NCBI GenBank assembly: GCA_013288985.1
Contig: JABDAT010000002.1
Span: 17,857-81,856, forward strand
Length of the DNA stretch: 64,000 nucleotides
From: Alphaproteobacteria bacterium
GTDB lineage: Bacteria; Pseudomonadota; Alphaproteobacteria; Rickettsiales; JABCZZ01
Direction: 5' to 3'
Each line of letters opens with the position of its first letter. Position 1 is the first letter of the stretch. The position numbers and the translations under genes were made by a program. Below are positions 25,430-29,636 of this stretch, piece by piece. The notes beneath the pieces were generated by a model. The model saw only the letters and a list, made by a program, of their open reading frames with translations. It had not been told where the DNA came from and made no database searches.

Positions 25430-26230
25430 GTGCAGAAAGATAAAAAAACATTGGATGGTAATAGTATGACAGATAATTTAAGCAGCGCGCCGATTGCGGG
25501 GGCAAGTTTTCCAGCCGTATCAACTGGCGGGCTAATGGCCTCTGTGCAACCTGAAAACGTAGATGCGCTTACCAAACGCTATAGCAATAAATGGACCAGG
25601 AAGAAGGAAGAGCTCGTATTTGAGTTCACGCGTGATCCGGCAATGCTGCACCAGTATTATCGCATATATGAAGACCAGTTCAGGGCAGTGCATAATGCTC
25701 AACGTTATGAACATACGGCTGAAGATGAGCATGATCGCAGAAGCCATATTATCGTTGCAAGACGCGGCAATCTTTGTGTTGGCGGTGCGCGCCTTTCGGT
25801 TAAAACTCCACGCCAGCCGCATTTGCTTCCGGTTGAAATTGATGGTTTTAGACTTGAGGATAACTTTCCTCATCTTAAAGAAAAAGAGATGCGCTATGCG
25901 CAAATTGGGCGTTTTTGCTTACTGCCGGAATTTCGTGGTAGCTCAAACACTCAGATGATGTTGGAGCATTTATATAGAAAATCTGTTGCTTTAGGTATGG
26001 ACGTTGTTTTTGGAACAGCTCCTTTACTTAATGCCCGTGTATATATGCAAAATTTTTCTGCTATGGGGTTAAAAGGGGCTAAGCTGCATTTCGATATCAA
26101 TCTGCCTGATTATCCAATGTGCGAAGAGATAAAATTTTATCTCATAAGCTTGACCATCGATAAAGTATCTTTGAAAGACCAAATTACTTTGAATGAAGAT
26201 GAATATAATCGTCCGTGGGAAAAAGTTTAG
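25430..26230 (+). CDS. GNAT-superfamily N-acyltransferase resembling LuxI / FeeM / OlsB-type acyl-ACP-dependent N-acyl amino acid synthases
   Basis: Pattern EDEHDRRSHIIVARRGNLCVGGARL ... YAQIGRFCLLPEFRG ... VVFGTAPL resembles that family. Start uncertain (GTG 25430 or ATG 25466). Not confirmed by any search. Confidence 0.45.
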   Translation: MQKDKKTLDGNSMTDNLSSAPIAGASFPAVSTGGLMASVQPENVDALTKRYSNKWTRKKEELVFEFTRDPAMLHQYYRIYEDQFRAVHNAQRYEHTAEDEHDRRSHIIVARRGNLCVGGARLSVKTPRQPHLLPVEIDGFRLEDNFPHLKEKEMRYAQIGRFCLLPEFRGSSNTQMMLEHLYRKSVALGMDVVFGTAPLLNARVYMQNFSAMGLKGAKLHFDINLPDYPMCEEIKFYLISLTIDKVSLKDQITLNEDEYNRPWEKV

Positions 26231-26283
26231 TTTAATTTTTTCATTTTCTTAAAATTGAAATAACCTATCTACCAGGAAGCAAT

Positions 26284-26958
26284 ATGGAGTTTTTTGACCG
26301 GTTAAAACAGGAAACGGCGAGTGAACGTGCAGATTTATATGCCGTGCCTATACTTGTGGATGCTATGCAGGGCCGCATTACTCGCGACATGCATGTAGCG
26401 CATTTGGAACAGGCGTATCATCATGTAAAACATGCTGTGTCATTAGTCATGCTTATGGCTGGCCGGCTTCCCAAGGATAAAGAATGGTTACGGCGGCTGT
26501 TAATCGAATATATAAAAGAAGAAACCGGTCATGAAGACTGGATATTGGATGACATTAAAAATATAAGCGGAGAAGCAAAAGCAGAGGCTGTAAAAAATGG
26601 CAGGCCCGGGCTTTCTGTTGAACTGATGAATGCATTTAATTATGACTTTATTATGCGCAAGAATCCTCTGGGATATTTTGGGATGATATTTGTGTTGGAA
26701 AATGCCAGTACTGATATTGGCACCCAGGCAACTGAGGCATTACAAAAATCTTTTGGTGTAGGCAAAGAGTCTATCAGTTACCTTGCATCTCATAGTTCTC
26801 TAGACGTGGAGCATGTAGACTTTATTGGGAATATTCTTAATAAAATCACTGATTCAAAAGATCAGGAAGACATTATCCATGCATCCAGGGTTATCTATCG
26901 TTTATATGCAGATATGTTTCGCAATATCCCAAATACCTACGCAAAACAGGCCGCATAA
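26284..26958 (+). CDS. Heme-oxygenase-like fold / iron-dependent oxidase-like protein (TenA/PqqC/CADD-like)
   Basis: All-helical 224-aa protein with His/Glu motifs spaced like dimetal ligands (HLEQAYHHVKH, EETGHEDW, VLENAS, SLDVEHVDF). The assignment is tentative. Confidence 0.4.
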   Translation: MEFFDRLKQETASERADLYAVPILVDAMQGRITRDMHVAHLEQAYHHVKHAVSLVMLMAGRLPKDKEWLRRLLIEYIKEETGHEDWILDDIKNISGEAKAEAVKNGRPGLSVELMNAFNYDFIMRKNPLGYFGMIFVLENASTDIGTQATEALQKSFGVGKESISYLASHSSLDVEHVDFIGNILNKITDSKDQEDIIHASRVIYRLYADMFRNIPNTYAKQAA

Positions 26959-26960
26959 CT

Positions 26961-28367
26961 TCATATTCTTGTTATTTCTGCCAGCAGGGATTTCTTAAGT
27001 TTAAGCGTAACTCCAGGGTCAGGACTATTTGCTATGCTATTGAGTGCTTTGACCTTAAAAAGCGGAAGAAGCTTTGTAAAAATTATTTTTGCTTCCATTT
27101 CTGCAAGCTTATAACCACTACATTTTCTTGATCCGTGCGAGAAGGGGAAATAAATTCCTGTGTCAATCTTGGCCTCATTTTCCGGCAAGAACCGTTCGGG
27201 AATAAATGCATTGGGAGCATCCCACCACTTTGGATGACGATGCAGGGCAATTTGCGGCAATACTATTATTGTGCCGGGGTCTACTTTAAAATCACCAAAA
27301 TTATCTTCTTCGATAGCTTCTCTGCTTGATATCCATATCGGAGGATAAAGACGCATGGTTTCTTTGGTTGCTGCTAAGAGATAATCCATCTTGTTTATTG
27401 CGTCATAGGTAAGAGCAGAGCTATCCTGAGTTGCTGCGCATGGCGCATGGGTTATGATTTCACTACGTAGTTTATCTTCTACATCCGGTCTTGTATCCAA
27501 TATATACCACATCCATTGCATCAGAATAGATGTCGTTTCAAATCCGGCAAATACCATAGTAGCTGCGTGATCTCTGATATCCTGATCGCTAAAATGCTGC
27601 GGATCTTGTTTCTGTGCCTCAGTCAGCAATGCAAGCATGTTATACTTATCCTGCAACTCTCCCTCTTGATACTCTGCCCGCAGTTTTCCGATAATTGCAT
27701 CTACATTTGCCAGCTCTTTTTTGAATTGTAGATAACGGGGGGTACAAAAAACCTTACCCAAATCCACTTTGGGCAGCATTCTTGTTATTTTAAGATATTC
27801 TATAAGAACGCTGTAAGAATAATGAAGCGAAGCAACGGTTTTTTCATCCAGATTATCTTTGCCAAAAATTATTTTTAAAACGATTTCTACTGTCATCATT
27901 GACATTTCAAAGGTTATATCGAGTTCTGTTCTGCCTTTTTCTGTCAACGTAAGCCAGCGTTGCTTAAATTTTTCACTTACTTCATTAATAACGGTAAAAT
28001 AATAGCCTTCAATTTGTTCTCTTTTGAACATGGGCTGAATCTTTTGTCGGTCTTGCCGCCACTTTTCGCCATTACTTGTAAATAATCCTTTTCCAATGGC
28101 AGACTCAAACCGGATATAGGCTTTTGATTTATTATAGTTCTTATGGTTTTCCATAAGCACATAACGAACCAGTTCCGGATGATTCACCTGAATTAATTTT
28201 CTACCTATCATTTGGAAAGGTATAATATCCCCATAACGCAGGGCATTTTCCATAGAAAAACCCAGAGGATCATTCTTTGCAGCAGCTATCATGCCAAAAA
28301 TGGGGGGGCCTTCAGGCCCGCCGGTCATTGTATAATTCTTTTTTGTCATAAATTTGCTAAAACACAT
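26961..28367 (-). CDS. Cytochrome P450
   Basis: I-helix AGFETTS, EXXR as ETMRLYPP, heme loop FPFSHGSRKCSGYKLAEME (FxxGxRxCxG). Start uncertain among three nearby Met codons. Confidence 0.9.
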   Translation of the reverse strand: MCFSKFMTKKNYTMTGGPEGPPIFGMIAAAKNDPLGFSMENALRYGDIIPFQMIGRKLIQVNHPELVRYVLMENHKNYNKSKAYIRFESAIGKGLFTSNGEKWRQDRQKIQPMFKREQIEGYYFTVINEVSEKFKQRWLTLTEKGRTELDITFEMSMMTVEIVLKIIFGKDNLDEKTVASLHYSYSVLIEYLKITRMLPKVDLGKVFCTPRYLQFKKELANVDAIIGKLRAEYQEGELQDKYNMLALLTEAQKQDPQHFSDQDIRDHAATMVFAGFETTSILMQWMWYILDTRPDVEDKLRSEIITHAPCAATQDSSALTYDAINKMDYLLAATKETMRLYPPIWISSREAIEEDNFGDFKVDPGTIIVLPQIALHRHPKWWDAPNAFIPERFLPENEAKIDTGIYFPFSHGSRKCSGYKLAEMEAKIIFTKLLPLFKVKALNSIANSPDPGVTLKLKKSLLAEITRI

Positions 28368-28595
28368 TGCTTAATTTGATTCTTCCCCGCATTTTTTTCA
28401 TGCAATGTCTGCTCGTGTCAAGGTCTATCGAAGCAACCGTTAAGTTGAATCACTTAGAGTTGTATTTCTTTGATAAAATTCTTAAATATTACAAGAGTTA
28501 CAGGATAGACCAGTTTTGACTATTGCGTTTGCAATATTTTACGCCAAAATACATTAAATATACGAAAGTCTGTAATAACGAGATTTAGGGTAATA

Positions 28596-29636
28596 ATGGA
28601 TACTTTTCAGATGCAATTGGTTGAAAGCGATAAACGGACTTCGGGTTTGGTTATAGGTGATTACGTACCTGATCTTCATAATTACTCTCGCCCCATCCCT
28701 ATTATATTCTGGTTGGATTTTTTATTATCTCTCCTGACTGGAAATGGCTTCCTATATTTTGCCGTTAAAAATACTTCTTTTTCTCCGGAGCAGGTACTTT
28801 GTATATTTATTTCAGCTGTTTTCCTGTTCCGTGCAGGAGTATTCATGCACGAAGCAGTACATGCGGCAAAACAGATTCCCTTATTCGACTTAGGTTATAA
28901 TTTCTTGCATGGTTTTGTGCATAAACTGCCGCTGTATATATTTGGTGCTCATAAGCACCACCATGCCGCTGAAACATATGGGACGATGAATGACCCTGAA
29001 TATGAGTTGTTGAAAGGTTCACCTCTGCACTATGTCACCCCCATTTTTTCACAGACTGTAATGCCCCTTCTGTTATTGATTAGGTTTGGTATTGTCCCTG
29101 CTTTATTACCTTTCATTGGAGAGAAAGGACGCAATGTGATATATCAATACGCATCGACATTCGCCCTGAATTTACGCTTCAAACGTTCTTTACCAAATGA
29201 AAAAGAACGAATAGAGTGGTACTGGCAGGATGCAGGATGCTTTTTCTACAATACTATATTCTTTGCGCTTATGATAAGTGGGGTATGGAGCTGGAAAGTA
29301 TTCTTTATATGGTATGCAATTTTTTACCTGACATTTCTATTCAATTTTTATCGGGTAATGACAAGCCATACATATTCAACAAATTTTAATCAAACAAATC
29401 GAAAGCTGCAAATTCTGGATAGTGTCACGGTAACGGGATCGTGGATCTTGGGATTGGTATTTTATCCCGTGGGGATGCGTTATCATGCGCTGCATCATTT
29501 ATTTCCTCACATACCTTACCATAATTTAGCTAGACTACATCGATCAATACTCACTACTATACCTGCAGGTCATCCCTATAGGGAAACACTCGTGCTGAAT
29601 TATTTCGATGCGCTAAGAAGATTGCCCAAAGCTTAA
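28596..29636 (+). CDS. Membrane fatty-acid desaturase/hydroxylase family protein (three His boxes)
   Basis: His boxes HEAVH, HKHHH and HALHH, separated by hydrophobic segments. Confidence 0.8.
   Translation: MDTFQMQLVESDKRTSGLVIGDYVPDLHNYSRPIPIIFWLDFLLSLLTGNGFLYFAVKNTSFSPEQVLCIFISAVFLFRAGVFMHEAVHAAKQIPLFDLGYNFLHGFVHKLPLYIFGAHKHHHAAETYGTMNDPEYELLKGSPLHYVTPIFSQTVMPLLLLIRFGIVPALLPFIGEKGRNVIYQYASTFALNLRFKRSLPNEKERIEWYWQDAGCFFYNTIFFALMISGVWSWKVFFIWYAIFYLTFLFNFYRVMTSHTYSTNFNQTNRKLQILDSVTVTGSWILGLVFYPVGMRYHALHHLFPHIPYHNLARLHRSILTTIPAGHPYRETLVLNYFDALRRLPKA

Follow-up and report, generated by a model that had tools for sequence, protein, structure and literature searches.

A 64,000-nucleotide stretch of alphaproteobacterial DNA (contig JABDAT010000002.1 of assembly GCA_013288985.1, positions 17,857 to 81,856), referred to below as the window, carries four adjacent genes that encode a GNAT-superfamily protein, a heme-oxygenase-like dimetal oxidase (HDO), a cytochrome P450 and a membrane desaturase or hydroxylase with three histidine boxes. 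They are followed by genes for a TonB-dependent outer-membrane receptor (TBDR), a periplasmic YfiR-like protein, a sensor histidine kinase and a MarR-family regulator, and are preceded by a conserved non-coding block (Table 1). Comparison with related loci tentatively suggests a module in which a constant part, including the GNAT and the receptor, is combined with a variable slot of tailoring enzymes.

Table 1. Genes and non-coding features of the locus, with positions counted from the first nucleotide of the window.
Feature	Position	Strand	Length	Family or remark
Conserved non-coding block	25258-25335		~75 nt	between the divergent glmS and GNAT genes
GNAT (FeeM-like)	25430-26230	+	266 aa	putative N-acyl amino acid/amide synthase
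HDO	26284-26958	+	224 aa	Haem_oxygenas_2; 3His/3carboxylate
Cytochrome P450	26961-28367	-	468 aa	Pfam p450
Membrane three-His-box desaturase/hydroxylase	28596-29636	+	346 aa	FA_desaturase
TBDR	29761-31917	+		TOL_0244 family, NF053590; plug and barrel
Periplasmic YfiR-like protein	31986-32567	+		DUF4154, E 2e-33
Sensor histidine kinase	32590-34122	+		(CHASE8)-HAMP-HisKA-HATPase, Pfam domains; NF053592
MarR-family regulator	34248-34709	+		Pfam; downstream of the kinase gene

The preliminary description of this DNA had reported four adjacent enzyme genes at 25430-29636. Their open reading frames were confirmed, with gaps of 53 bp between the GNAT and HDO genes, 2 bp between the HDO and P450 genes (stop to stop) and 228 bp between the P450 and desaturase genes. 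The principal Pfam match of each protein exceeds its gathering score, and every motif quoted for the HDO, the P450 and the desaturase is present. The extent given at that time covers these four genes and overlooked the co-conserved partners of the GNAT, which begin beyond it, at 29761-34709. The P450 gene lies on the minus strand, tail to tail with the HDO gene and head to head with the desaturase gene, so that the four genes form at least three transcription units and not a single operon. Promoter and terminator scans of the locus gave site numbers no higher than in shuffled sequence and are therefore uninformative on transcription units.

Forty-four related loci, about 23 of them independent and numbered here with an L, were collected through GNAT-family, HDO and desaturase searches and annotated with Pfam and with tblastn searches that used the proteins of the window as queries. 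The named locus records are metagenome-assembled genomes (MAGs) of uncultured Alphaproteobacteria, several labelled Rickettsiales. The loci come from biased queries and are not a genome-wide census, and partner counts were taken over 23 independent loci with enough flank. The GNAT gene was found next to a TBDR gene of the same family in 17 of these 23 loci, a DUF4154 gene in 14 and a kinase gene in 11, the DUF4154 gene coming after the receptor gene in 14 loci. Among the enzyme genes, an HDO-type gene is associated with the GNAT in at least six loci, a desaturase in four, an LCM-family methyltransferase in four and a P450 in two. The linkage of the GNAT to the sensing genes spans three gene orders and at least six flanking contexts, including one plasmid-like contig.

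Genomes with about 70% protein identity share a common frame, in which glmS on the minus strand is followed by the GNAT gene, a slot and the genes for the TBDR, the DUF4154 protein, the histidine kinase, MarR, NMT1_3 and SDF. The slot is empty in L023 and L024, contains an HDO orthologue alone (66% identical) in L042 and an LCM-family carboxyl methyltransferase alone in L001 and L044, and holds the HDO, the P450 (minus strand) and the desaturase in the window. In L017, it is filled by a P450 on the minus strand (71% orthologue), an LCM gene and an HDO-methyltransferase fusion on the minus strand, and another desaturase gene lies between the DUF4154 and kinase genes; all four enzyme classes are together there too, via different paralogues. 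L027 has retained the GNAT and the kinase, with receptor and DUF4154 missing. No transposase or integrase was found among the annotated slot genes of the syntenic loci, and the G+C content of the window's slot genes is 0.39-0.41 versus 0.42-0.46 in their neighbours. The earlier proposal that the four genes could jointly build and tailor an N-acyl product is partly supported, in that the same enzyme classes recur beside GNAT genes, and needs amending in that the oxygenases are optional and form no fixed four-gene set. GNAT/HDO and GNAT/desaturase pairs turn up in other genomic settings as well, and the same four orthologues were found in no other locus.

Outside this frame, related arrangements were observed in several loci. 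In L033, the kinase, DUF4154 and receptor genes, all on the minus strand, precede a GNAT gene and two desaturase genes. L040, which was found by the desaturase query and not by the GNAT, contains MarR, kinase and DUF4154 genes on the minus strand, the GNAT, a desaturase on the minus strand, a second desaturase 43% identical to that of the window, and receptor and LCM genes on the minus strand. In L036, a GNAT gene is followed by an HDO gene (65% identical) and an amino acid permease gene. The module of L005 (10001-15810), with GNAT, receptor and DUF4154, lies on a plasmid-like contig next to ParA/CbiA, RepA_C, resolvase and primase-like genes and may be plasmid-borne; a search of the plasmid database PLSDB with the window GNAT gave no match. 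The flanking genes vary from locus to locus (glmS, MurB, Peptidase_C26, pentapeptide repeat, ThiF, GH3), and the module therefore travels as a unit.

Two further loci are reported as such. In L021 (3445-8946), the place of the receptor cassette behind the GNAT gene is taken by a DUF6939 gene and two large Ser/Thr protein kinase genes. L009/L029 corresponds to a 327-kb contig, DATGMF010000056.1, which is binned as Ktedonosporobacter (Chloroflexota) and carries the GNAT, TBDR and DUF4154 module; it is probably misbinned, since this module is typical of the Alphaproteobacteria loci examined.

Across the syntenic loci, protein identities were 86-95% for MarR, 70-82% for the kinase, 67-77% for the TBDR, 65-76% for glmS, 58-69% for DUF4154 and 39-69% for the GNAT, which on these alignments is the fastest-evolving of the genes compared. 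GNAT proteins group by slot type (L001-L044 69%, L023-L024 63% and L042-L019 65%, with 39-63% for other pairs). A weaker grouping of the same kind was seen for the TBDR (window-L017 76%, L001-L044 75%, L023-L024 77%). The divergences of TBDR, DUF4154 and kinase correlate tightly across loci (r = 0.75-0.92), most closely for TBDR and kinase (r = 0.92). MarR is 87-93% identical in syntenic loci and 68% identical in the rearranged module of L040.

The GNAT protein is, on sequence and model evidence, a divergent member of the branch of FeeM and other N-acyl amino acid synthases (NAS), and not a plain acetyltransferase, a LuxI or an OlsB protein. This placement follows from the fold ranking, the matches of its wider family to FeeM and TIGR03694 and the failed OlsB and LuxI scores. 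In Pfam, it matches Acetyltransf_5 (PF13444) with 29.4 bits against a cut-off of 22.4 and FeeM (PF21926) with 16.6 bits, below the gathering cut-off of 27. The AlphaFold2 model has a core (residues ~60-245) with pLDDT >90, and the N-terminal ~55 residues are predicted to be disordered. The fold was assigned by one Foldseek run against the PDB, in which FeeM (2G0B) was the top match (E 1.6e-8, TM on target 0.71), LasI ranked fifth and TofI, BjaI and MesI came lower in the list.

When 1.84 billion representative proteins were searched with a profile, 600 relatives of the GNAT were retrieved at E <= 1e-3, 152 of them at E <= 1e-30. In a sample of 35 from this wider family, 28 matched the Pfam FeeM model (E <= 0.01, best 5.8e-9), 20 matched Acetyltransf_5 and 21 matched TIGR03694, the PEP-CTERM/exosortase-associated N-acyl amino acid synthase family (best E 1.2e-8). 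The window GNAT itself does not match TIGR03694. PEP-CTERM or exosortase genes were not found in the module, and the unrelated L041 is the only one of the loci that carries one. The family profile retrieved no PDB chain by sequence at E <= 10. The preliminary description had admitted a plain small-molecule acetyltransferase as the alternative, and the FeeM fold match and the profile matches of the relatives speak for more than that.

Two other identities were rejected. A LuxI-type acyl-homoserine lactone synthase was not recognised, as no Autoind_synth (PF00765) match was obtained for the window GNAT or the 35 relatives, two of which weakly touch the LuxI-type TraI model (E ~0.006). The OlsB models scored 19.1 bits against 350 (NF052554) and 15.7 bits against 320 (NF052555), and no PlsC/OlsA-type O-acyltransferase was found among the annotated genes at 12012-38418, a scope that lies in the window, so that such a gene may lie elsewhere in the genome. 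The analogy with the OlsB/OlsE aminolipid pathway that had been drawn previously is accordingly weak. Of note, the start of the GNAT gene is ambiguous: the GTG codon at 25430 is preceded by a strong Shine-Dalgarno sequence, AAGGGAG, and gives an extension (MQKDKK...) also found in the homologue P0018, and ATG at 25466 coincides with the MTD(N/G)L motif at which most homologues begin.

The HDO matches Haem_oxygenas_2 with 87.3 bits (Pfam cut-off 28.9, E 1.4e-24) and contains the motifs E80-T-G-H83 and H170-SSL-D174-VE-H177. Residues E80, H83, E139, H170, D174 and H177 were invariant in alignments of 20 and 25 homologues, very distant ones included, and a 3His/3carboxylate set on core helices 1-3 is what defines the HDOs (PMC13108848). 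Its AlphaFold2 model is all-helical (pLDDT 91) and resembles CtCADD (TM 0.83-0.87), 3DDE, a protein of unknown function (0.83), and UndA (0.80). By its ligands and predicted structure, the protein is an HDO of the 3His/3carboxylate type with the seven-helix heme-oxygenase-like fold, in an uncharacterised clade. The original heme-oxygenase-like call was therefore sound: a TenA thiaminase, the error that had been envisaged, is unlikely because the metal-ligand set is complete and invariant. A CADD-type p-aminobenzoate synthase (TIGR04305) was rejected at 26 bits against a cut-off of 200. HDO orthologues come after the GNAT gene in L019, L036 and L042.

Relatives of this HDO were also seen in other settings. 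Gammaproteobacterial proteins 44-55% identical to it belong to another conserved operon, beside a response regulator/histidine kinase pair (L038 3787-8173; L037 4583-8122). In L038, the gene order is T_hemolysin (PF12261), AMP-binding ligase, HDO, short-chain dehydrogenase and TPR protein; in L037, the T_hemolysin gene is missing. No description of this gammaproteobacterial operon was found. A cryptic relationship of the T_hemolysin protein to the GNAT was not shown by hhalign (probability 0.2%), which is a weak single-sequence test. In parallel, an HDO domain fused to a C-terminal S-adenosylmethionine-dependent methyltransferase domain is encoded at L017 11445-12821 on the minus strand, the same gene as L043 12253-13611; all six ligands align, and LCM methyltransferase and P450 genes adjoin it.

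The P450 matches Pfam p450 with 253.8 bits (cut-off 22.8, E 4e-75) and contains the Cys-ligand loop (FSHGSRKCSG at 409), ETMR (EXXR) at 336 and the I-helix motif AGFETTS at 274. Its best PDB sequence matches are 7WZL, CYP170A1, CYP3A4, CYP4B1 and CYP102, and it appears by sequence to be related to the CYP3/4/102/170 group. A CYP152-like identity was rejected, the CYP152 model giving only a weak partial match. The orthologue in L017 has the same position and orientation. The desaturase matches FA_desaturase (PF00487) with 77.7 bits (Pfam cut-off 29.7, E 1.6e-21) and has its histidine boxes at 85 (HEAVH), 119 (HKHHH) and 297 (HALHH). No NCBIfam model and no PDB sequence matched it, and no characterised subfamily could be assigned. 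With their ligands invariant and their motifs intact, the HDO, the P450 and the desaturase look functional.

The 43% identical desaturase homologue in L040 lies inside the rearranged module of GNAT, TBDR, DUF4154 and histidine kinase. In L041 (7001-15095), a desaturase 48% identical to that of the window is located about 2 kb from a PEP-CTERM gene, a classical synthase of the FeeM/Acetyltransf_5/Autoind_synth type and a MacAB-like efflux system, which is a second, independent tie of this desaturase clade to N-acyl synthases. In L033, the two desaturase genes are directly followed by a ferredoxin gene (9405-10304, minus strand; Fer4 and DUF3470, with a long N-terminal extension), whose product may be the electron donor of both desaturases. 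Unlike in L033, no ferredoxin gene stands beside the P450 or the desaturase of the window.

The receptor of the window scores 661 bits with NF053590 (TOL_0244), above the cut-off of 645, and Pfam recognises its plug and barrel domains. An N-terminal signalling (STN) domain was not detected, and partial matches to NCBIfam siderophore-receptor models were observed. Of the cassette modelled as TOL_0244, TOL_0243 and kinase (NF053590-NF053592), the receptor is thus over its curated score and the other two proteins are under theirs. The YfiR-like protein has an apparent N-terminal signal peptide, read by eye only, and a direct PDB sequence search detected no YfiR chains. The kinase has no receiver domain. 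YfiR, itself a DUF4154 protein, represses YfiN via the YfiN periplasmic domain, and the sequestration of YfiR at the outer membrane releases YfiN (PMC4655355); the sensor domain of YfiN is now classed as CHASE8 (PMC8085984).

The block upstream of the GNAT gene recurs as near-identical DNA, one copy each, in nine distinct syntenic loci besides the window, where proteins are about 70% identical. Copies lie at L017 8019, L042 4736, L023 9353, L024 4040, L044 1542, L027 9839, L019 1271 and L018 865, and the pattern reads TATAAGGTTTT.CTTGC.AATTTGCCAG...AT.ATTTA..TTGTGGAT...TAAGT.TCCG.AAAACC. The block is missing from the more distant L011 and L012. An RNA element was rejected, RNAalifold giving -1.3 kcal/mol with one covarying pair and Rfam no match in gathering or E-value mode. 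A DNA regulatory site is therefore favoured, probably a promoter/operator shared by glmS and the GNAT gene.

The genomic context of the window is chromosomal. The genes further upstream (12012-13999, 15084-17102, 17792-20596 and 20666-23351 among them) include two T2SSF (TadB/C-like) pilus genes, an aroA-cmk fusion and an AsmA-family gene, as well as a degenerate EAL-like gene, an A24 prepilin peptidase N-domain (peptidase domain not detected) and a cNMP-binding/FHA protein. Synteny from the EAL-like gene to glmS is kept in L017, L023, L027 and L042, and the AsmA and aroA-cmk genes were seen in L043 only, which is the same contig as L017. Downstream, genes for a TAXI-type binding protein and an SDF transporter come after the module in the syntenic clade.

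The reading that we favour, with slightly less than even confidence, is that the module consists of a constant part (GNAT, TBDR, YfiR-like protein, kinase and often MarR) and a variable tailoring slot, by which a product is made, diversified and sensed. To the gene content, folds, metal ligands, catalytic motifs and linkage described above, we add the following steps, whose substrate, product and ligand we infer. The GNAT would form an N-acyl amide by condensing an acyl carrier protein (ACP)- or coenzyme A (CoA)-bound acyl chain with an amino acid or an amine; enzymes of the FeeM family form N-acyl amino acids or amides from acyl-ACP or acyl-CoA (PMC11631085). The HDO, the P450 and the desaturase would then oxidise, desaturate or decarboxylate the N-acyl scaffold, which in sister genomes would meet a carboxyl methyltransferase instead. 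As the slot enzymes differ, we propose that each lineage makes a different derivative. It is probable that the product of the GNAT is an N-acyl amino acid or amide and that the slot enzymes tailor it. More speculatively, the HDO and the LCM enzyme could both act on a free carboxylate, through UndA-like oxidative decarboxylation or methyl esterification, and the finding that each stands alone in the slot in different lineages is compatible with this.

The product, once released, would be bound by the dedicated TBDR, and the YfiR-like protein might shuttle between the receptor and the periplasmic domain of the kinase and switch the latter, by analogy with YfiB-YfiR-YfiN. With a TBDR in place of YfiB and a kinase in place of the GGDEF output, a relay from the outer membrane to the kinase is plausible on this analogy. 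Overall, a self-produced ligand would have its own outer-membrane sensing pathway. Taken by itself, the notion that the downstream cassette senses the GNAT product is possible but somewhat doubtful. The most far-reaching version, a new type of bacterial communication in which an N-acyl amino-acid-derived autoinducer acts through the TBDR and the YfiR-like protein on a probable CHASE8 kinase, with the slot as a lineage-specific chemical dialect, is unlikely at present.

Several observations weigh against the reading of a product that is made, diversified and sensed. Generic GNATs follow only slightly behind FeeM in the Foldseek ranking, the TBDR is missing from six GNAT loci, and the divergence of GNAT and TBDR correlates moderately (r = 0.64), with an apparently reshuffled pairing of the two in L022. 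The models of the sensing proteins are matched incompletely: NF053591, the best match of the YfiR-like protein, reaches 99 bits (cut-off 125) and YfiR itself (NF053586) is weak, whereas the N-terminal domain of the kinase reaches 134 bits against 194 with its best match, NF053592 ("sensor histidine kinase, YfiR-like protein-associated"), and CHASE8 is weak at 22.7 bits against 27, although HAMP is present. The module has neither an exporter nor a response regulator; no ACP gene adjoins the four enzyme genes, and the P450 lies on the opposite strand with no redox partner gene adjoining it. The closest named desaturase homologue, from Methylomonas albis, is solitary, in a mobile-element region beside a transposase. 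Finally, in two of those six loci, L011 (10750-12620) and L012 (10703-12543), distant GNAT genes (35-37% identical) lie beside glmS and are followed by LPG_synthase_TM (MprF flippase-type) and GT2 glycosyltransferase genes, with no receptor cassette, a hint of a membrane-lipid fate in this lineage.

The latter arrangement, with the glmS synteny preserved, supports the strongest rival explanation, in which the GNAT, like OlsB or GlsB, produces a lyso-aminolipid that is hydroxylated or desaturated in the envelope by the oxygenases, and the TBDR, the YfiR-like protein and the kinase form a regulatory sensor of envelope state. All aminolipid N-acyltransferases known so far share PF13444 (PMC11631085), envelope stress is a signal to which YfiBNR itself responds (PMC4655355), and the AsmA-family gene about 5 kb upstream is of a lipid-transport type. 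The window GNAT does match the OlsB models weakly, but far under their cut-offs; its family is nearer to FeeM and TIGR03694, and the O-acyltransferase of the second step (PMC11631085) was found neither in the annotated related modules nor among the annotated genes at 12012-38418. Moreover, a dedicated TBDR is hard to explain if the lipid remains in the membrane, and such fast exchange of tailoring genes among close relatives would be unusual for bulk membrane lipids. Aminolipid remodelling is judged improbable. The same exchange of genes could instead mean that the HDO, the P450 and the desaturase are coincidental neighbours with unrelated substrates, acquired horizontally as cargo in an insertion hot spot between GNAT and receptor. 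The variation of the slot in nearly all relatives, the opposite strand of the P450, the slightly lower G+C of the slot genes, the large HDO family that is mostly found in the T_hemolysin, AMP-ligase, HDO and short-chain dehydrogenase type of operon, and the solitary desaturase beside a transposase would all fit. Nevertheless, the same classes stand beside family GNATs in the non-syntenic L036 (HDO), L033 (two desaturases) and L040 (two desaturases and LCM), and L017 gathers all four classes from different paralogues. The slot is limited to oxygenases and methyltransferases, which is non-random, and in the syntenic loci no transposase or integrase was found among its annotated genes. Coincidence is judged quite improbable.

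Very improbable, in our view, is a role in metallophore or nutrient scavenging, in which the GNAT and an N-oxygenating HDO would make an acyl-hydroxamate-type chelator, the TBDR would import it, and cell-surface signalling through the YfiR-like protein and the kinase would induce uptake genes. TBDRs are classically siderophore importers and that of the window partially matches siderophore-receptor models. Some HDOs are N-oxygenases or belong to the enzymes of metal-binding natural products (PMC13108848), and TAXI-type binding-protein and SDF transporter genes follow the module in the syntenic clade. On the contrary, the HDO is missing from many loci with GNAT and TBDR (L001, L023, L024, L044), and the module contains no TonB-ExbBD genes, siderophore-type ABC importer or reductase. 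The GNAT was moreover found to be FeeM-like rather than of a siderophore-acyltransferase type, and it is presumably no member of the IucB/PvdY family.

The reading of a self-made and sensed product would give a clade of NAS enzymes, which is linked here with a receptor of the outer membrane, a YfiR-like protein and a kinase, a concrete hypothesis of native function, namely a self-made ligand with its own sensing pathway. If the ligand-receptor pairing is true, this would be a new kind of signalling circuit. It would also suggest a role for the TBDR/YfiR-like/kinase cassette, which is modelled by NCBIfam and for which no published function was found in the open-access literature. The lineage-specific slot (diiron HDO, P450, three desaturase clades, carboxyl methyltransferases and the HDO-methyltransferase fusion) could be seen as nature's own experiment in making variants of a small lipid-like molecule, and it points to a probable class of substrates for an HDO clade that is uncharacterised; the deorphanising of such HDOs is a key need of the field according to a review (PMC13108848). 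The members were all found in uncultured bacteria, for the most part Alphaproteobacteria that MAG records label as Rickettsiales, so that their chemistry is unexplored. Searches of the same literature yielded no paper on an NAS clade with a variable slot of HDO, P450, desaturase and methyltransferase genes and a receptor, YfiR-like protein and kinase, none joining DUF4154/YfiR proteins to TBDRs as a system, and none joining N-acyl amino acid synthases to TBDRs or an HDO to an N-acyl synthase.

Among known systems, the FeeM/NAS family is resembled in the GNAT fold, with FeeM as best match and with the FeeM and TIGR03694 matches of the wider family, and in the presence of one small synthase gene with tailoring genes nearby. 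The fee cluster from environmental DNA likewise has a single small synthase gene and neighbouring tailoring genes. The window protein differs by its very low sequence similarity, a score under the FeeM gathering threshold and the extra disordered N-terminus, and the module has a TBDR, a YfiR-like protein and a kinase instead of PEP-CTERM/exosortase or ACP neighbours. The proposed stieleriacine cluster of Stieleria maiorica comprises N-acyl amino acid synthases, a putative fatty acid desaturase and an oxidoreductase, and stieleriacine is a secreted, biologically active N-acyl (dehydro)tyrosine (PMC7293339). It is similar in pairing an N-acyl synthase with a fatty acid desaturase, but belongs to a different phylum, includes transporters and a PEP-CTERM protein alongside four NAS genes, and contains no HDO, P450, TBDR, YfiR-like protein or kinase.

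The OlsB/OlsE ornithine-lipid pathway also joins a PF13444 N-acyltransferase to an oxidative modification, but the OlsB scores here are far under the cut-offs and no O-acyltransferase gene was found nearby among the annotated genes. OlsE belongs to the FA_hydroxylase His-box family, other than FA_desaturase. With regard to the oxygenases, UndA (an HDO), UndB (membrane FA_desaturase-like) and OleT (a P450) each oxidatively decarboxylate carboxylic acids to 1-alkenes (PMC13108848, PMC11204201). The same three superfamilies meet in the window and the HDO has a fold match to UndA, yet no orthology was found: 3DDE and CADD are nearer to the HDO than UndA is, the P450 is not of the CYP152 kind, and the three enzymes are alternative routes to alkenes, not a single pathway. 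LuxI/LuxR systems share the acyl-transferring GNAT fold of the LuxI/FeeM type, with LasI, TofI, BjaI and MesI all matched, and its linkage to a putative cognate sensor; they differ in that Autoind_synth is not matched here and that the putative sensor is an outer-membrane receptor with a kinase, not a cytoplasmic LuxR. Finally, as in YfiBNR (PMC4655355, PMC8085984), a DUF4154 gene stands beside genes for an inner-membrane CHASE8-type/HAMP sensor, with a weak CHASE8 here, and for an outer-membrane partner. That partner is a TBDR and not the OmpA-like lipoprotein YfiB, and the output is a HisKA/HATPase kinase and not a GGDEF diguanylate cyclase. The module is therefore not a member of YfiBNR and at most works like it.

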